Of a stretch of DNA of 48,857 nucleotides, positions 10,862 to 44,406 are shown in pieces; position 1 is the first letter of the stretch; each line of letters opens with the position of its first letter. The DNA lies in the UHGV virus genome UHGV-0138835, one strand, 5' to 3'. The stretch is from a virus. Made by a program: the position numbers and the translations under genes. The notes beneath the pieces were generated by a model that saw nothing but the letters and a program-made list of their open reading frames with translations, was not told where the DNA came from and ran no database searches.

Positions 10862-12277
10862 TTAAAAAGATGCGTTATTCTGATTGTTTCGTTGGCTAAA
10901 TCGGCTTGTACGATGATTCATGGACTGAATGCACGCGGCGGCGGCCTTACCCTGGTCGCATGGTAATATATTGCCGTTGTCATCAAACCGCTGGTAAATA
11001 GTACCAGTTTTCCCGTGACGGTTTTTAGATACAATTATTTCCATGTATTCGCGTGCTACAGACTGCTCATCGTAATAACCATCGCGGTAAACCATGATGA
11101 TCCTGTCAGCGTCTTGCTCAAGGTTCCCTGAATCTCGAAGATCTGAATTATTAGGGCGCTTGTTAGGTCGTTCCTCAACGCGGCGGGATAACTGGGCCAG
11201 CGCCAACACTGGTACACGCAATTCTTTCGCCATCATCTTCAACGACCATGACAATTGCCCTACAGCGAGATCGTGACGTTCGGCCTTAGCCAGCTTCATC
11301 AACCCGATGTAGTCAATCATTACCATACCCAGGTTGGGGTGTTCCTGTTTCATCCGTTCCGTGGTGGCGCGTATTTCCTCAACCGTTAACTGCGACGCGT
11401 CAACGATCCACACATCAAGATTAGCAAGTGCACTCATACCCTGGCCAACATGCGCCCACCCCTCATCATCAAGTTTTACCGGATTGCGCAGGCAGTCAGT
11501 TGATAAATTGCCAGCGCCAGCTATAGCGCGCTCAGTCATCTGATCGAGCGACATTTCAAGCGTGAATAACAAAACACCAACCCGCTGATCCTTGCTGCCA
11601 GGGTAAGGGCGCTCAGCAGCAGCGCGGGCAATCGCCAGCGCCAACGCAGATTTACCAGACCCAGGGCGTCCGGCGAGAAGTACCAAATCAGTGGCGTTAA
11701 TACCGCCTAACATTTCGTCGAGCGGTTCTATCCCTGTTTTGATGTTGTCAGAATTGACACCGCATTCCATGCGCTTGCTTAAAACCTCTGTGTATTCCTG
11801 TACCGCATCGCGCAACAGAACAGGGATAATCTTGTCTTTCGTTACCTTTAATTTTGAATACCGGGAATCAAAATCTTTCATCGTCTCTTTGACGACCTCA
11901 AGCGTACCCGTTTCCAGTTTGTAGCGCATATCGTCGATGAGTTCCAACATCTGACGCCGCTGGTGCTCTTCCCGTAGTAGCTGTGCGTACCCCTTCAGGT
12001 TGGCAGCAGAAGGACACGATCGCGCCGTTTGCATTAGCGGTACAAAGTTTTCGTTGCCAATCTCATCGCCAACCAATAACGCATCGATAAGATTCCTGTT
12101 TCTGGCTTGCGCCCTGATAATTTCAAACGCACGTTTATACAGCGGAATCGTGAACACTTCAGGATCAAGAGTGGCGAGAACATCTTGCGCGTTAGGAGTT
12201 AGGCCGCCTAACAGCAGCCCGCCGATAACTGACGCTTCACGTTCCTGCCGTAGTGAGTTTATTTGCTCAGTTACCAT
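10862..12277 (-). CDS. replicative DNA helicase, DnaB family
   Basis: N-terminal DnaB-like ERAVLGGLLL-type motif (EASVIGGLLLGG), Walker A GRPGSGKSA, length 471 aa. Confidence 0.85.
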   Translation of the reverse strand: MVTEQINSLRQEREASVIGGLLLGGLTPNAQDVLATLDPEVFTIPLYKRAFEIIRAQARNRNLIDALLVGDEIGNENFVPLMQTARSCPSAANLKGYAQLLREEHQRRQMLELIDDMRYKLETGTLEVVKETMKDFDSRYSKLKVTKDKIIPVLLRDAVQEYTEVLSKRMECGVNSDNIKTGIEPLDEMLGGINATDLVLLAGRPGSGKSALALAIARAAAERPYPGSKDQRVGVLLFTLEMSLDQMTERAIAGAGNLSTDCLRNPVKLDDEGWAHVGQGMSALANLDVWIVDASQLTVEEIRATTERMKQEHPNLGMVMIDYIGLMKLAKAERHDLAVGQLSWSLKMMAKELRVPVLALAQLSRRVEERPNKRPNNSDLRDSGNLEQDADRIIMVYRDGYYDEQSVAREYMEIIVSKNRHGKTGTIYQRFDDNGNILPCDQGKAAAACIQSMNHRTSRFSQRNNQNNASF

Positions 12278-12295
12278 TATGTTATTTCCTCCGGT

Positions 12296-13447: not shown

Positions 13448-14191
13448 CTACTTACACGCAAAAAGTTCAGATACCCAAAGCTGCCCCTTAGCGGTAAATA
13501 GTGATTGGACGTAACCTTCAGCCGAACATTTTACCACTCCATAGCCTTTTTCTACGAACCACTGTTTGAACATACGCCCACCGCGCTTAATTCGCGTATC
13601 GTACACGTCAACCTGTTCAAGTTTTTTGTTGAGTTGCGTAGCAGTCATACCCAAAGGCTTAGCGACCTGTGTAGCGTTGCGATGCTGTTCGTTTTTTGCA
13701 ATAGCATTATAAACAGCCGCTTTCGGTGCTAATTCCTTATTTTCCAGCGCCAGACGATCAACTTCTTTCTGTGCTAATAGTTTTTGCTCTACCTCATCCG
13801 CCCATGCGCGAGCAGCCGCAACCGGATCAGTGAAGTCCGGCAAAGCTGGTTTAAAACCGTAATGTCCATTTTCACGCAAAGCAGGGAGAACTTCTTCACA
13901 CACCCAATCCTGGAAGCGCTCAGCAAATTCTATTTTTGATCGCATCACAAGGCGGTACATATCTGATTCATGAATTAGCGTTACGCCTTGCGGTTTAGGG
14001 TCAAAACCCAAACACTGCATTTCACCGTATTTGATTTTAATCAATGACTTACAATGTTGTTTTAGAGCGTCCGCAGGTCTGATATACCCCAAAGCCCGCG
14101 CCACATCCATTGCAACAAAAGCAGGTTTACCATCATAAATTACAGCAGTGATTTTATTGTCATCAAAATTAAAACACATCAACTCAGACAT
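13448..14191 (-). CDS. antirepressor, Bro-N / KilA-C domain protein
   Basis: N-terminal Bro-N signature (FNFDDNKITAVIYDGKPAFVAMDVARALGY); start taken at ATG 14191 with GGGGAA SD. Confidence 0.7.
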   Translation of the reverse strand: MSELMCFNFDDNKITAVIYDGKPAFVAMDVARALGYIRPADALKQHCKSLIKIKYGEMQCLGFDPKPQGVTLIHESDMYRLVMRSKIEFAERFQDWVCEEVLPALRENGHYGFKPALPDFTDPVAAARAWADEVEQKLLAQKEVDRLALENKELAPKAAVYNAIAKNEQHRNATQVAKPLGMTATQLNKKLEQVDVYDTRIKRGGRMFKQWFVEKGYGVVKCSAEGYVQSLFTAKGQLWVSELFACK

Positions 14192-14323
14192 TGTAATTTC
14201 CCCGCAAAACGCTCTACAACGCAAAAATCCCACCGCGTAACACGTTCGCACATGTTGCAGTGTATTATTGCGCCAGAGGCGCTATCAGGTGGCTAATTTT
14301 TGATTTACAGACCGGTAGGTAGG

Positions 14324-15614: not shown

Positions 15615-15869
15615 TCATTCCTCCGGCAATGCAATGTCATAAATGTCGCCGTATTCGTCAGCGCGTTTAATGAATCCTTTGCGGATCAATGAATTTAATG
15701 CGTCAACAGTAGTATGCAGTGGTAGTTCGCACACTTTTGCGATCTCTTCGCGTGAAGCATGTGCGCGGCCTTTGTTGTCTGCCTTTTCTGCAAACGCAAT
15801 TAAGACAAGTTTTTGGATCGGGCTGTTAAGTTTTACGTTCCATACTTCATTCATCATGTGCATACTCAT
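15615..15869 (-). CDS. winged-helix HTH protein, first gene of the leftward early operon (Cro position)
   Basis: 84 aa, divergent from the repressor gene; HTH-like segment SREEIAKVCELPLHTTVDALNSLIRKGFI. Confidence 0.5.
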   Translation of the reverse strand: MSMHMMNEVWNVKLNSPIQKLVLIAFAEKADNKGRAHASREEIAKVCELPLHTTVDALNSLIRKGFIKRADEYGDIYDIALPEE

Positions 15870-16174
15870 CTTGTTTTTCTCCTATGGTTAGAGTGAACGC
15901 GCGGGCGGGCATCCCATTAGCATTAGATAGCAGTGACTGACCGCTCAACAGATCCCGCCGTTGCGTGATATTTGTTTTTCGCTTCGCAGCGACACCGGAT
16001 TTTTAAAGAGCTTAAGGAATTGGCCTTTTGTGCTTTCCTTTATCTTTTTTCTTGCATCATTGCAACTATGGCCTTACCTTGTCTGCAAGTTTACATAATG
16101 GCTTTAACAGGTCAAGGCTTGAAAAACACGTTTTGTGACTTGCATCAAACTTTTTTAGGTTATAGGGTAGCGAC
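15870..16174. promoter_or_regulatory. divergent immunity regulatory region (OR-like) with repeated CTTGCATCA motifs and a candidate leftward boxA/boxB
   Basis: CTTGCATCA at 16051 and 16139; TTTACATAATGG at 16090; minus-strand boxA-like GCTCTTTAAAAA (plus 16000-16011) followed by a hairpin at plus 15979-15992. Confidence 0.45.
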
Positions 16175-16822
16175 ATGAAAACAAAATGGTATGACTTAGC
16201 AAAGCAGCTCATGCGGGCGCAGGGCATGAGTCAGGATTCATTGGCTGATCTCATGGGGATAACCAAAGGTGGCCTTTCGCACTGGCTGAACGGTCGCCGT
16301 GAGCCAAATCTTGAAGATATTGCGCGGATCATGCGGGCGCTTGGGCGTCGGCAGTTTACTGTCACACATGACGGGATGGTTATCGATGATTCTGTTTCTA
16401 ACACGTTACCGGGAGCGCCACCGCGTGATTTAGGCAGTTACCCGGTTGTTGACTGGAAGGATGTAGCAAACAATATGGAAGGCACATGCCGATCAACATT
16501 GCCACACATTACTACTAGCGTTATTTGTTCGGATGATAGTTATTGGCTGGTTGCTAAAGGTGAATCAATGAACGCACCGCAGGGGTTAAGCATCCCGGCG
16601 GGGACTATGATACTCGTTGACCCGCACGCGCCAGCTATTGACGGAAAACTTGTTATAGCACAACTGGAGGAAGGGCAGATACCTACGTTTAAACAGTTGA
16701 TTATTGATGGAGGCCGAAAACTTTTGCGTTCACTGAATCCGTTGTATCCGCCGATCCCTATGAATCCAGAGTCAAAAATCATTGGCGTGGTTGTTGATGC
16801 GAAGATCGTAAACCTGCCATAA
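16175..16822 (+). CDS. CI-type repressor (HTH_XRE + LexA-like S24 peptidase domain), P22 C2-like
   Basis: C-terminal domain closely matches recalled P22 C2 (GSYP…SEDS.WL…G.SM.AP.GLSIP.G..ILVDP……GKLV.A.LE…..TFK.L..D.GRK.L..LNP.YP.I…….KIIGVVVDAK..NLP). Confidence 0.9.
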   Translation: MKTKWYDLAKQLMRAQGMSQDSLADLMGITKGGLSHWLNGRREPNLEDIARIMRALGRRQFTVTHDGMVIDDSVSNTLPGAPPRDLGSYPVVDWKDVANNMEGTCRSTLPHITTSVICSDDSYWLVAKGESMNAPQGLSIPAGTMILVDPHAPAIDGKLVIAQLEEGQIPTFKQLIIDGGRKLLRSLNPLYPPIPMNPESKIIGVVVDAKIVNLP

Positions 16823-16827
16823 ACATT

Positions 16828-16853
16828 AGCCGCCTGGTGGCGGCTTTTCTTTG
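16828..16853 (+). terminator. rho-independent terminator after repressor gene
   Basis: agccgcc-tggt-ggcggct hairpin followed by TTTCTTTGTT. Confidence 0.6.
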
Positions 16854-16946
16854 TTCGAAAAAACACCAAAACGTAAACAGAAAACGCTATTTATTGTTTA
16901 AATATCAATAGTATATAAAATATTTTAAAAAAGTATACAAAATGGA

Positions 16947-16975
16947 TTGACTCGATGTTATACGGGGAGTATATT
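16947..16975 (+). promoter_or_regulatory. candidate sigma70 early promoter (pL-like): -35 TTGACT, 17-bp spacer, -10 TATATT
   Basis: Hexamers and spacer read directly; upstream of the nut site and the N-like gene. Confidence 0.5.
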
Positions 16976-17016
16976 GCGAGTCAAAGGAGGCAGCAAGGCA
17001 GGGAAGGAAGGTTACT

Positions 17017-17054
17017 TGCTCTTTAATAATCTGGTCAGCCGCTGGAAGTGCGGC
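17017..17054 (+). promoter_or_regulatory. candidate nut site: boxA-like TGCTCTTTAA plus boxB hairpin GCCGC-UGGAAGU-GCGGC
   Basis: boxA 17017-17026 resembles the recalled rrn/lambda boxA; 11-nt spacer; boxB stem-loop 17038-17054. Confidence 0.5.
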
Positions 17055-17110
17055 AATTAACGAAGATGATTTTTTATTAAGTTTCATCAAGGATATACGG
17101 AGATCAGATT

Positions 17111-17401
17111 ATGAGCGTTACAATTATGTATGGAAAATGTGATAGCAAAATGAACGCCAGGGAACGCAGAAGGATAAAAAGAGAAAACGAAAGAAAATCA
17201 TCACCTGCAATTAATAAAACAGACAATGTGGATAAAGCTATTCGATTTGCAAACGAGGAAAGGTGCAAACCAAATAGCATTAAAGAACGTCGCAAAGGAT
17301 CAGTAAAATGGTATACGGAAAATGAAAGCGGCAGCTACTACCACGCAACGCAACCACGCCATTTAGGGGAGAAACCCCTGGATAAAGTCCGTTACCATTA
17401 A
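17111..17401 (+). CDS. N-like transcription antitermination protein (P22 gene 24-like)
   Basis: N-terminus MSVTIMYGKCDSKMNARERRRIKRENERK resembles recalled P22 gp24 (MTVITYGKS…AKTRRHERRRKLA) with an arginine-rich motif; first gene after promoter and nut. Confidence 0.6.
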   Translation: MSVTIMYGKCDSKMNARERRRIKRENERKSSPAINKTDNVDKAIRFANEERCKPNSIKERRKGSVKWYTENESGSYYHATQPRHLGEKPLDKVRYH

Positions 17402-17550
17402 TACAAAATGTAAACATTCGGAGGTTACATTATGGTTATCGAGGCGCTTCAATTCAAACTGACAGTAGCGGAAATGCTTCATGATGCCGAAATGTGGAGC
17501 GCCGCGAATAAAGCCTTATACATAGTGTTAACAGCGAAGGAGATTAAAGA

Positions 17551-18192
17551 GTGAAAACAGAGTTACACAAAAAACTGTGGACGATTCAGCAAACGCTGAA
17601 CGCGCCGAAAAATCAGCGTAATAATTTCGGCGGATACAATTACAGGTCGGCGGAGGATATTTTAGAAGCGGTCAAACCACTGCTTCAAAGTATTACGCTG
17701 ACTGTAAGCGATGAAATTGTCCTGATCGGCAATCGCTATTATGTGAAAGCCACTGCGACACTAAGCGACGGTGAGGATGAAATAGCGGTAACTGCTTACG
17801 CCAGGGAGGAAGAAAGCAAGAAGGGAATGGACGCAAGCCAGTTAACTGGCGCGACATCAAGTTACGCGCGTAAATACGCGTTGAACGGATTGTTCTGTAT
17901 TGACGATGCGCGTGATCCTGATACTGATGCATACGCCAAGCAGACAGGCCAGCAGCCTCGCCAACAGAAAAACCCACCAAAACAACAACCACAGCAGCAG
18001 AAGGCGCCGCCAAATCCTGACGAAGTGTTAGCGCGTTTCTGTGATGCAGCAGCGAAAGCGCCGGACGCTAACAAGTTACGCGAGATCTTCGGCAAGTGCT
18101 GGAAGCTATTGCCTAAGGATTCAGAACAACAACAGAAAGCGAAAGACGTTTATGACATTCGCTTGAAAGAGCTTAACGGGGAGATCGGTTAA
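17551..18192 (+). CDS. erf: Erf single-strand annealing recombinase
   Basis: Strong match to recalled P22 Erf (…LNAPKNQ.N.FG.Y.YRS.EDILE.VKPLL……SDEIVLIG.RYYVKATAT..DGE………AREEE.KKGMDA.Q.TGATSSYARKY.LNGLF.IDDA.D.DT); GTG start with AAGGAG SD. Confidence 0.9.
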   Translation: MKTELHKKLWTIQQTLNAPKNQRNNFGGYNYRSAEDILEAVKPLLQSITLTVSDEIVLIGNRYYVKATATLSDGEDEIAVTAYAREEESKKGMDASQLTGATSSYARKYALNGLFCIDDARDPDTDAYAKQTGQQPRQQKNPPKQQPQQQKAPPNPDEVLARFCDAAAKAPDANKLREIFGKCWKLLPKDSEQQQKAKDVYDIRLKELNGEIG

Positions 18193-19139: not shown

Positions 19140-19249
19140 ATCTTGCAAAAATTGCCGCATTGCTTGCGGCTTTATCTATCGCCGTGCTGTATCTCAGCGT
19201 GTCGCTTTATATCACGGTAGCGATCATTAAACTCATTACTAACATGTGA
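19136..19249 (+). CDS. micro-ORF (37 aa), hydrophobic membrane peptide MNLAKIAALLAALSIAVLYLSVSLYITVAIIKLITNM
   Basis: ATGA overlap with the upstream gene, SD GGAGGGTGG; below ORF-track cutoff. Confidence 0.35.
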   Translation: MNLAKIAALLAALSIAVLYLSVSLYITVAIIKLITNM

Positions 19250-21395: not shown

Positions 21396-21588
21396 ACATT
21401 ACAGAGAATGGATGATTCCAGAATCAGCAACAAAGGCAGCGCCCGGAATATTTTCGGGCGTTTATTTTTATATGGAAGGTAAATGGTATTTCGGCAGCAG
21501 GCCGGATCACTATTATCAAGAAGTGTGCAAATCTCACACATGGGACATTAATGAGCGCGTGCAAGGCGGTGTAATAGACGAGGTTTAA
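21370..21588 (+). CDS. hypothetical protein (72 aa)
   Basis: ORF in operon. Confidence 0.3.
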   Translation: MRCHYMRFKHYREWMIPESATKAAPGIFSGVYFYMEGKWYFGSRPDHYYQEVCKSHTWDINERVQGGVIDEV

Positions 21589-24111: not shown

Positions 24112-24370
24112 AACAACCCGCCAGCCGCCGCGCGGCTTTGCCAGTGCTGTATTCCTTGCTAACGACCGGGCCATCACGCGTACTACGCTCAACCGCGTTT
24201 TACCGGACTAAAGTTTACAAAATGGCGTCATTGCGTGATGTGGATCACATAATGGCGATTTTCACCTTGTTCTGACGTATCCATTTTGTATACTTCAAAC
24301 AAGAAAAATGCTCTTTAAAAATCCGGTAGCGCTGAAATGCGTAGAAATCACCTGAAAAGGAGAGAGCATT

Positions 24371-24547
24371 ATGCCTTTTGATAATTACCAATGGCATGAC
24401 GACTATGAACGAGAGAGCGTCATGCGTGCAATGTGCAATGTATGCAGCACGAAGAAAGGAGGCTGTAACGAGTGCAACGAATGCTTAGAACATTGGCTAA
24501 GGGCCGGACACGCCGAAAGGCTGAACGAAACAGAGAATCAAAAATAA
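24371..24547 (+). CDS. small Cys-rich (zinc-ribbon-like) protein, 58 aa
   Basis: Strong SD AAAGGAGAG 7 nt upstream; CNVCSTKKGGCNECNEC; below ORF-track cutoff. Confidence 0.35.
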   Translation: MPFDNYQWHDDYERESVMRAMCNVCSTKKGGCNECNECLEHWLRAGHAERLNETENQK

Positions 24548-24561
24548 TCGGGGTGGTTTTT

Positions 24562-25167
24562 ATGCAAAACCCTAAAAAACCCATAAGACGCCGTTGCAAA
24601 TGCTGCGGCGTTTTTTTTGAACCTAAATATCACAATCAAACGTGGTGCAGCGATGAATGTCTGGAAGAACTGAAGTTTGATCAGCTATGCCGCGAACGTG
24701 AAAAGGCTATGAAGGCTATGGAGCGGAAGAAACGCCGTGACAGCCAGCGTGAGGAACGCAACAGGAAGCGGAAACAGTTAAATCCGCGCAGCTACTGGAT
24801 TAAACAGGCGCAGGCCGTATTTAATGCCTATATCCGCGAACGTGACGCGCTATTGCCGTGCATATCCTGCGGGACTTATTACGGTGAGCAATGTTCATGG
24901 GATGCGGGACATTACAGGACGGTAGCCGCTGCCGGACACCTTCGCTTTAACGAGGATAATTGCCACAAACAATGCAGGCACTGCAACCAGACATTAGACG
25001 GCAACATCGGAGGGTATCGCCCAGCACTGATTCGAAAAATTGGCCTCGCCAGGGTGGTGGCGCTGGAGAACAACAACGAAACTCACAAATGGACGATAGA
25101 AGAATGTAAGGAAATCATAAAAGTCTATCAGGCGAAATTAGACGCCTTAAGGAGAAAGGCAGCATGA
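24562..25167 (+). CDS. ninG: NinG (Rap) recombination protein
   Basis: Strong match to recalled lambda NinG (RRRCK…C…PRSYWIKQAQ…N.FIRERD..LPCISCGT….WDAGHYRT.AAA..LRFNE.N.HKQC..CNQ…GN…YR..LI.RIG……E.N…H.WTIEECK.I). Confidence 0.85.
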   Translation: MQNPKKPIRRRCKCCGVFFEPKYHNQTWCSDECLEELKFDQLCREREKAMKAMERKKRRDSQREERNRKRKQLNPRSYWIKQAQAVFNAYIRERDALLPCISCGTYYGEQCSWDAGHYRTVAAAGHLRFNEDNCHKQCRHCNQTLDGNIGGYRPALIRKIGLARVVALENNNETHKWTIEECKEIIKVYQAKLDALRRKAA

Positions 25168-25571
25168 ATGAATATTCTTTTAGCCTGCCTTACCCGCCAT
25201 CGAATAATCGCTATTACCGACATTCACGCGGTTTTCACTATATCAGCAAAGTGGGGAAGGAATACAGGGAACAAGTAAGAGACATCATCGAGCTATTAAA
25301 TTTAAACATCAACCTATCTTGCCGACTGGCAATTACCATTCATGCCGCGCCGCCGGATAACCGAACCAGAGATCTGGATAATATCCCTAAATGCCTTTTT
25401 GATAGTCTTACTTATGCAGAGTTCTGGAAGGATGACGGACAAATCGACGCAATAAAAATTGTTCGCTGCCGGAAGGTAAAAGGCGGACGCTTGTTTATTA
25501 AGGTACGCGAACGCGGCGACCTGTTACCGGATATTGGTGAATACGAAACTAATATGTGGGGTGAGCAATGA
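25164..25571 (+). CDS. rusA: RusA Holliday-junction resolvase
   Basis: Match to recalled RusA (YSF.LPYPPSNNRYYRH.RG…RDLDN..K…D.LT.A.FW.DD.Q…….KGGRL). Confidence 0.85.
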   Translation: MNEYSFSLPYPPSNNRYYRHSRGFHYISKVGKEYREQVRDIIELLNLNINLSCRLAITIHAAPPDNRTRDLDNIPKCLFDSLTYAEFWKDDGQIDAIKIVRCRKVKGGRLFIKVRERGDLLPDIGEYETNMWGEQ

Positions 25572-25750
25572 AAAACGAAGTTAAAGATCTGCAAATAGAT
25601 ATTCAGCGCGATGAGCATGATTTAGCTACAGTCCGACAAATACAGGCTTTTCACATGAGAGAACTGCTTGCGCTGAAAGAGCTTGAAAGAAAGTTGGTCC
25701 AGTCAATATCTGATCGCAAAAGACTGGTTGCGCGTTACAGGGGAAAATAA
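25568..25750 (+). CDS. hypothetical protein (60 aa)
   Basis: ORF translationally coupled between rusA and Q. Confidence 0.3.
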   Translation: MKNEVKDLQIDIQRDEHDLATVRQIQAFHMRELLALKELERKLVQSISDRKRLVARYRGK

Positions 25751-26472
25751 TGAATCTGGAATCAATTCTTAAATTCCACTTCCCAAAATCACCGCGTTTG
25801 TCAGATGAAAGCCGGGGCACGTCCCCGGATGCGCTTAATACCACGGACGCACTAACTGCCGCAGGTATGGCGCAATCGCGCGTAGAGCTTGGTTATAGCG
25901 CTTTTTTGGGGAAGATGGAACTATCACAAGCCGAAAAACATAAGGCCGTAGTTTTGCTTACAGAGCGTTTAAGGGCTATGGCAAAAGATTATGAATACGT
26001 CATGGAACTGGACGAGGCCAAACGCAATGATCTCATTATTCTTGTTGCCGTTTTCGCGTTTCGGGATTATTGCCAGAGTGCAGCGACCGAAAAAGTTTGC
26101 CCGGAATGCGGCGGATATAAATTTACGTTTGACGAATACGGAGAAAAACACCTTTGCAAAAAATGCAAGGGGCATGGGAAAGTTCTTAATCATTGTAAAC
26201 AATGCAAGGGCCGTGGCGAAGTGCCGGATAAAGCAGCCAGCGAAGCGGCGGAAATGCCAGTATTCAAAACGTGTCAGCATTGCGGCGGGCGCGGGTACTC
26301 GCGTTTCCCTGTAGATCTCGTTCGGCAGGCTGTCAATCAGCTTGTCTTTCCGGTAAGCCGATCAACATGGTGGAAGAAATACCGCGCTTTCTATGAAGAC
26401 GCCATTGCTGAATTGTTCAAAGAAGAGGTGCGGGCAGATAACGAAATTAAACGAGTTACGCGGGGTGAATGA
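25750..26472 (+). CDS. Q: late-gene antitermination protein Q (lambda Q family)
   Basis: N-terminus MNLESILKFHFPKSPRLSD closely parallels recalled lambda Q (MRLESVAKFHSPKSPMMSD); Cys-rich zinc-binding region. Confidence 0.8.
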   Translation: MNLESILKFHFPKSPRLSDESRGTSPDALNTTDALTAAGMAQSRVELGYSAFLGKMELSQAEKHKAVVLLTERLRAMAKDYEYVMELDEAKRNDLIILVAVFAFRDYCQSAATEKVCPECGGYKFTFDEYGEKHLCKKCKGHGKVLNHCKQCKGRGEVPDKAASEAAEMPVFKTCQHCGGRGYSRFPVDLVRQAVNQLVFPVSRSTWWKKYRAFYEDAIAELFKEEVRADNEIKRVTRGE

Positions 26473-44339: not shown

Positions 44340-44406
44340 ATACAAAATGTACTCGTTGAAGTGAAGCCATTTTGTATAAAATAGAGACATAGATCACATT
44401 TTGTAT
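44340..44406. promoter_or_regulatory. inverted/direct repeats of ATACAAAATG / CATTTTGTAT in the divergent region upstream of the tape-measure gene
   Basis: ATACAAAATG 44340-44349; CATTTTGTAT at 44368-44377 and 44397-44406. Confidence 0.45.

Follow-up and report, generated by a model that had tools for sequence, protein, structure and literature searches.

Does the segment directly behind the repressor gene at positions 16828–17401 of UHGV virus genome UHGV-0138835 (48,857 nt, the whole of which is called the window below) carry a compact N-type early antitermination module, as the original prediction had it, and if so, is the module new? Here, we report with high confidence that the region is a lambda/P22-style N/nut early antitermination system of a temperate coliphage of the mEp021 group (mEpimmI). 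The predicted module is correct but already known: it has been published for the mEp021 group and is met here in a new mosaic member, and since the system was already published, the checks that had been proposed for it have largely been done on the orthologue. The value of the analysis is mainly one of annotation, namely the mEpimmI identity of the window and the placing of three nut sites, the N-like gene and the early promoters at exact coordinates, to which covariation across divergent relatives adds independent sequence-only support for the published nut sites.

An N/nut module behind the repressor gene

The elements of the module and of two further nut sites are the following.

16175–16822, plus strand: CI-type repressor gene (Rep021/gp15 orthologue, 215 aa), the upstream boundary of the module
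16828–16853, plus strand: intrinsic terminator of the repressor transcript (7-bp stem, 4-nt loop, T-run)
16947–16975, plus strand: N-operon early promoter TTGACT-17-TATATT (10/12 sigma-70 match, predicted start ~16982)
17017–17026, plus strand: nutR1 boxA TGCTCTTTAA, containing one of three exact copies of GCTCTTTAA
17038–17054, plus strand: nutR1 boxB GCCGC-UGGAAGU-GCGGC, 11 nt after boxA (-10.1 kcal/mol)
17111–17401, plus strand: N-like antiterminator gene (96 aa, Gp17 orthologue), with a GGAG ribosome-binding site 10 nt upstream
16011 to 16003, minus strand: nutL boxA GCTCTTTAA, identical in relatives
15992 to 15979, minus strand: nutL boxB UCGCU-GCGA-AGCGA with a GNRA tetraloop (-6.5 kcal/mol), conserved in relatives
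24310–24318, plus strand: boxA of a third nut site, nutR2, an exact copy of GCTCTTTAA
24329–24342, plus strand: nutR2 boxB GCGC-UGAAAU-GCGU (-5.5 kcal/mol)

All elements of the original prediction lie where it had put them, and in combination they are more than chance would give. Exactly three copies of the 9-mer GCTCTTTAA are present in the 48.9 kb of the window, against a mean of 0.54 copies in shuffled sequences, none of which (0/100) reached three. All three copies are intergenic, are oriented with local transcription and are followed 9–11 nt downstream by a short G+C hairpin, and an extension AA(A/T)AATC(C/T)GGT between boxA and hairpin is common to all three sites. Over boxA plus spacer, nutL and nutR2 share 18 identical nucleotides, GCTCTTTAAAAATCCGGT. 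The original prediction had placed a boxA 11 nt before the GCCGC-UGGAAGU-GCGGC hairpin and a mirror boxA/boxB candidate on the leftward transcript; both were recovered, the latter in its exact range (15979–16011) on the minus strand. The site at 17017–17054 is the published nutR1 and the mirror site is the published nutL, because the product of the adjacent N-like gene shares 94% identity with mEp021 gp17 and carries R17, R19, R20, R21 and R24. The earlier inventory of nut sites was thereby right for nutR1 and nutL and incomplete in having missed nutR2 (24310–24342). In the published account the targets of Gp17 are nutL, which precedes the repressor gene gp15, nutR1, which precedes gp17, and nutR2, which follows gp32; nutR1 is the most variable of the three (PMC11893012).

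Conservation and covariation of the nut sites

The nutR1 boxB hairpin is invariant in seven close phages, in which boxA reads GCTCTTTAA or GCTCATTAA. At the corresponding place upstream of ninF/ninG, mEp021 and loci L009–L012 have nutR2 as well, and in L010 its boxB carries a compensatory change from G.U to C-G. In divergent relatives, which are those with an N-like protein only 66–72% identical and were collected by a protein-anchored search, the nutR1 hairpin takes the forms GCUAC-UGAAAU-GUAGC, GCAC-UGAAAA-GUGC, GCAC-UGAAAU-GUGC and CGC-UGAAAU-GCG.

When 13 nut sites, including nutL of P22, were aligned, 96.6% of stem cells formed standard pairs and four of the five pairs were changed on both sides. 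The covariation score of the stem was 0.513 compared with 0.168±0.047 in shuffles (0/500 reached the observed value), and sliding the 3' partner abolished the signal (at most 0.12). Since the sequences were hand-picked and three paralogous sites were mixed, this covariation is supportive and not a formal test. What is invariant in the loop is C|UG..A..|G, in which U.U or U-A closes a loop of GNRA type (GAAA, GCGA); boxB of lambda shares this pattern. No Rfam family matched anywhere in the window at gathering thresholds, nut sites not being modelled in Rfam.

An attempt to collect nut sites from IMG/VR by the extended boxA GCTCTTTAANAATCNGG was abandoned; it returned mostly unrelated phages without boxB and about five loci of this group, and the protein-anchored search was used instead for that reason. 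Among the IMG/VR loci (L015–L133), the string GCTCTTTAA(C/A)AATC(T/A/C)GG was seen in at least 119 viral contigs, most of them unrelated and without a CGCUG-type boxB, and many run on with ATATCC. The extended string suggests that an element of boxA plus extension is widespread among other phages.

Between promoter and nutR1, an insertion of ~214 nt with the gp16 ORF is present in about half of the relatives (mEp021, mEp515, mEp010 and L010–L012) and absent from the window, mEp044, mEp554 and mEp013. In mEp021 (locus L007, 1490–1725) the insertion is G+C-rich, holds a second boxA-like string, GCACTTTAAAAAATCAGG, and folds at -79.7 kcal/mol (z=-2.15) with no Rfam match.

The N-like protein

The N-like gene encodes a protein that begins MSVTIMYGKCDSKMNARERRRIKRENERK and has the predicted arginine-rich motif, NARERRRIKRENERK, at residues 15–29. 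R17, R19, R20, R21 and R24 are present and conserved across homologues; in 48 genomes R17, R19, R20 and R24 were fully conserved and R21 was found in 45 (PMC11893012). PHROG 271, 'anti-termination protein N-like', matches the whole protein (E=4.7e-13). The counterpart in phage MagusPhagus is 99% identical and is labelled 'anti-termination protein N-like', the sole record to name its gp17 orthologue as an antitermination protein. The orthologues in the mEp phage records (PP180001–PP180005 and MH706966) are entered as 'hypothetical protein', all 31 family database clusters are unnamed or 'hypothetical', and a word-indexed search of 5.8 billion proteins returned the narrow family alone (61–99% identity), again unnamed or 'hypothetical' throughout. 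In 50,697 phage records, tblastn with the protein (E≤10) hit mEp-group phages only and found neither P22 nor lambda. The P22 gp24-like N-terminus that had been noticed was borne out by BLASTP, with 10/20 identities (E=0.014) confined to the extreme N-terminal part, and hhalign paired residues 3–48 with P22 gp24 at 36% probability, including TDNVDKAIRFAN against IDRVTKAISLAG.

Within the family, residues 1–35 are variable and residues 38–96 almost invariant; by analogy with lambda N, this fits an RNA-binding end that can change along with its target, joined to an end kept constant by contact with host NusA or RNA polymerase. In the divergent relatives the arginine-rich motif and the nutR1 boxB diversify together, and the repressor, nutL and nutR2 stay constant. 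On its minus strand, the N-like gene contains a terminator-like hairpin (17328–17344), which the records of mEp044 and mEp013 annotate as 'T3' and where antisense or convergent transcripts might end.

The homology of the protein was observed directly, and so were the elements themselves with their recurrence, conservation and covariation. According to PMC11893012 (Front Microbiol 2025), which cites Valencia-Toxqui 2023 (Arch Virol 168:92), experiments showed Gp17 to be the early antiterminator of mEp021, and mEp021-group phages depend on host Nus factors. Gp17-dependent antitermination, the arginine requirement and Nus dependence are taken from this literature on the 94%-identical orthologue and would apply to the window by analogy. 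Without the CI-type repressor, RNA polymerase of the host would start at TTGACT-17-TATATT (~16982) and reach nutR1 ~35 nt into the RNA, boxA and boxB lying within the first ~75 nt, before it transcribes the first gene, that of the 96-aa N-like protein. The N-terminal arginine-rich motif of this protein would bind the boxB hairpin, boxA would recruit host NusB/NusE, and with NusA and NusG the complex would ride the elongating polymerase, downstream terminators being ignored; we infer these molecular contacts. Read-through would lead to expression of the recombination, nin and Q genes, and the protein would act also on nutL, in the divergent replication operon, and on nutR2, just upstream of ninF-ninG-rusA-Q.

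Source phage and its group

The 2-kb module region is 92–98% identical to that of six Mexican E. coli phages (mEp515, mEp010, mEp044, mEp554, mEp013 and mEp021), with MagusPhagus as a further match. A 24-kb stretch has ~90% DNA identity to described mEp-group phages, covering 77–91% of the length. Because of these matches and this identity, the window is regarded as a distinct mosaic member of the mEpimmI (mEp021-like) group of E. coli temperate phages. The marks of mEpimmI membership were all found, namely nucleotide similarity and a gene order common to the window and mEp021, a Rep021-type repressor (immunity group I), and a Gp17 orthologue with R17, R19, R20 and R24 and three nut sites where the literature places them; gp17 was found in all 48 genomes of the group (PMC11893012). 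Prophages related to the window occur in 35 of 5,426 complete E. coli genomes.

Repressor gene, early promoters and an operator-like motif

The repressor has HTH_3 (E=5e-13) and Peptidase_S24 (E=1.7e-18) domains, belongs to PHROG 4 (transcriptional repressor) and is 96% identical to that of mEp021 with an invariant HTH region; the repressors of relatives, including those with a divergent N-like protein, are 91–96% identical, likewise with an invariant HTH. In the stretch 16140–16177, its ATG (16175) lies only ~7 nt past a TATAGG -10-like hexamer and lacks an evident Shine-Dalgarno sequence; as with lambda cI from PRM, the maintenance mRNA may be leaderless.

Directly after the repressor gene, as predicted, a hairpin AGCCGCC-TGGT-GGCGGCT (16828–16845) is followed by TTTTCTTTG, forming a hairpin with T-run at 16828–16853. 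In seven phages its stem is invariant and only the loop varies, and it is annotated as a terminator in mEp021, mEp010, mEp515 and other records. Its presence and position are thus as originally described, but it does not belong to the module as a target: since it sits upstream of the N promoter, it ends the repressor (immunity) transcript, as the immunity-operon terminator of lambda does, and is not a substrate for N-modified polymerase from this promoter.

Three further elements, one of them in front of nutR2, bear on early transcription.

16115 to 16088, minus strand: leftward (replication operon) promoter-like site TTGACC-16-TAAACT, its -10 overlapped by the operator-like motif
16932–16945, plus strand: operator-like 14-mer AGTATACAAAATGG, 1 nt upstream of the -35 hexamer of the N promoter and conserved in relatives
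24269–24296, plus strand: promoter-like element TTGTTC-16-TATACT (8/12 match), 13 nt before nutR2 boxA

The predicted TTGACT-17-TATATT promoter was the top sigma-70 match in a 2.1-kb scan. Both hexamers and the 17-nt spacing are invariant among the seven close phages, and distant relatives have TTGACA-17-TATATT or TTGACA-17-TATAGT, in which hexamers and spacing are kept and the spacer sequence is unrelated.

Exact matches to AGTWTACAWAATGG were found in the whole window only at 16088–16101, 16932–16945, 24212–24225 and 24281–24294 (the last on the minus strand), all in the three nut-associated intergenic regions, and 13 matches with up to two mismatches were counted compared with 1.6 expected. 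This motif may serve as operator for the Rep021-type repressor or for some other regulator. Weaker copies were seen at 12293, 48205 and 44341–44405, the last place holding a cluster of three related copies (TACAAAATG[GT]) between late genes. Between the leftward promoter and the first replication gene, no convincing Cro-like ORF was present among ORFs of at least 30 aa; the interval 15870–16175, between leftward promoter/nutL and the first gene of the operon, held neither a Cro-like nor a CII-like ORF. An Ant/Bro antirepressor gene lies at 13448–14251 on the minus strand.

Alternative explanations

A number of observations weigh against assigning the region to an N/nut system. The Pfam profile N_peptide (PF25694) reaches 17 bits with the N-like protein, under its gathering cut-off of 27.9; BLAST detects no similarity to lambda N or P22 gp24 past ~20 residues; and a PDB search with a nine-sequence profile gave none of the lambda, P22 or phi21 N peptides and only spurious SRP68 hits at E>0.7. 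The nutR1 loop of the window, UGGAAGU (GGAAG), is not a canonical GNRA-type pentaloop and is the least canonical of the three, and the three boxB loops differ among themselves. Single boxB hairpins are only ~2 sd more stable than shuffles (z about -2), so that the case rests on recurrence and covariation and not on energy. nutR2 is said to lie 'more than 7.9 kbp downstream of nutR1', and the homologous boxA sites of mEp021, at 12225 and 20172, are 7947 bp apart. The identification of nutR1 rests on this spacing, set against that figure, and on the position given in PMC11893012. Finally, the functional evidence comes from the orthologue, mEp021 Gp17, and not from this exact genome.

What else could such an arrangement be? 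The boxA might act alone, as in host rRNA operons, by factor-only antitermination through NusB/NusE (and SuhB), leaving hairpins and ORF irrelevant to read-through. The wide occurrence of GCTCTTTAANAATCNGG in unrelated viral contigs speaks for this, and the window boxA and that of mEp044, TGCTCTTTAACAA, equal the rrn-type boxA consensus. It is nevertheless very improbable given that a hairpin with a covarying stem comes at a fixed distance after every boxA, that the product of the neighbouring gene is N-like and has an arginine-rich motif, and that antitermination in mEp021 is reported to depend on Gp17 (PMC11893012). More improbable still, to the point of being negligible, is that boxA-like string and hairpin arose by chance next to an ORF for an unrelated small basic protein. 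Short hairpins and 9–10-mers are common and the Pfam match is below threshold, yet the boxA shuffles and the covariation test effectively refute chance, and the architecture and orientation shared by the sites, the PHROG 271 match and conservation over more than 50 loci stand against it as well. The remaining alternative accepts an N-like system and differs on nutR2, to which the next section turns.

A possible third early promoter in front of nutR2

Upstream of nutR2 lie a hairpin-plus-T element (GCCGCGCGGC hairpin) at about 24124–24145, three copies of the operator-like motif (24212, 24246 and 24281 on the minus strand) and the promoter-like TTGTTC-16-TATACT. This 28-nt stretch is identical without gaps to the leftward promoter TTGACC-16-TAAACT at 19 of 28 positions, and at both the motif complement CCATTWTG runs into the -10 hexamer. 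The comparison was made by eye; a three-way alignment of the promoter-nut regions was uninformative because promoter-to-nut distances differ. The region resembles a duplicate of the leftward promoter-nutL cassette and repeats the pattern 'terminator, promoter, nut'.

An N-like system in which nutR2 mainly serves its own repressor-controlled third promoter, giving three promoter-nut cassettes, is possible, with a chance somewhat short of even. In its favour are these preceding elements, the identity with the leftward promoter, the 18 nt shared by nutR2 and nutL, and the conservation of the nutR2 upstream region in six loci. Against it, the -35 matches at only 3/6 positions, the consensus promoter scan did not call the element (8/12 being under its threshold), and the operator-like motif alone could explain the conservation; moreover, nutR2 is reportedly reached by read-through from nutR1. 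That a functional third early promoter exists ahead of nutR2 is possible, if on balance somewhat doubtful, and a little more doubtful is that nutR2 would be the leader of a separate repressor-controlled early promoter (~24269–24296) and not the distal site of a 7.3-kb read-through. The terminator, the operator-like repeats and the promoter-like element before nutR2 nonetheless suggest a third early promoter that can be tested, and this may be the sole point that goes beyond the published account. If true, the phage would have three N-boosted early transcription units, with the nin/Q block under direct repressor control.

Operon layout and downstream terminators

For the N/nut system with sites at nutR1, nutL and nutR2, each nut site has one or more predicted intrinsic terminators downstream. 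These and the relevant genes are as follows.

19154–19170, plus strand: predicted intrinsic terminator, the first downstream of nutR1, at the position of mEp021 TERM_2
21438–21462, plus strand: strong predicted terminator with an 11-bp stem, deeper in the N operon and at the position of mEp021 TERM_3
24472–25167, plus strand: NinG gene
24592–24610, plus strand: predicted intrinsic terminator downstream of nutR2
25164–25571, plus strand: RusA gene
25750–26472, plus strand: Q-type late antiterminator gene (Pfam Antiterm PF03589, E=1.4e-28), downstream of nutR2
14365 to 14348, minus strand: predicted terminator downstream of nutL, after the replication initiator gene

The terminator at 19154–19170 is a likely target of read-through. 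On the plus strand, N is followed by a Kil-like 40-aa ORF, Erf, SSB, then methylase and HNH genes, nutR2, NinG, RusA and Q; on the minus strand, nutL is followed by an 84-aa HTH_36 protein, a Lin1244-type replication initiator, the Ant/Bro antirepressor and a DnaB-type helicase. The 40-aa ORF (17432–17554), right after the N-like gene, matches PHROG 34942 strongly and Lambda_Kil weakly (21.3 bits against a cut-off of 27.6). The 84-aa protein, product of the first gene of its operon (15615–15869, minus strand), resembles the N-terminal domain of replication initiators. A layout different from that of lambda had been claimed and is indeed seen, with NinG, RusA, Q, N, Erf and SSB on the plus strand and the DnaB-type helicase and replication initiator on the minus strand. 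That the replication genes occupy one strand and N, the recombination genes, the nin genes and Q the other is already published and is the reason for the label 'non-lambdoid'.

Comparison with known systems

Like lambda N, the product described here is a small protein with an N-terminal arginine-rich motif, encoded by the first gene after an early promoter and a boxA-boxB site close to that promoter, although pairwise sequence similarity to lambda N is absent. As in lambda, the divergent early operon has a second nut site, the N promoter is directly preceded by the repressor gene and its terminator, and Nus dependence is reported for the mEp group (PMC11893012). Lambda differs in having two nut sites where three are present here, in its cro and cII, for which no ORF is evident here, and in carrying Q and the nin genes in the replication operon, which here belong to the N operon.

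The N-terminus of the protein is similar to that of P22 gp24, MTVITYGK...NAKTRR against MSVTIMYGK...NARERR, as is a motif further downstream, IDRVTKAI against TDNVDKAI, whereas the C-terminal half has no detectable similarity to gp24. The boxA of P22 nutL, CGCTCTTTAAC, has the same core GCTCTTTAA, and its boxB has the form CGCUG-loop-GCG; the P22 boxB GCGCU-GACAA-AGCGC follows the same loop pattern as the mEp-group nut sites, its GACAA pentaloop being replaced here by GAAA, GCGA or GGAAG loops with U.U or U-A as the closing pair. The genes follow one another as in the P22 PL operon (N, kil-like, erf, then ssb or abc). Unlike the window, P22 has two nut sites, has cro and c1, and carries Q (gene 23) on the replication side.

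The closest counterpart is the Gp17/nutR1-nutR2-nutL system of mEp021. It differs by the ~214-nt gp16 insertion, which the window lacks, and by a boxA that reads GCTCATTAA where that of the window is the consensus GCTCTTTAA. The two proteins are 94% identical with the same R17, R19, R20, R21 and R24, the repressors are 96% identical, gene order and strand layout are the same, and nutR1 boxB, nutL and nutR2 boxB are identical.

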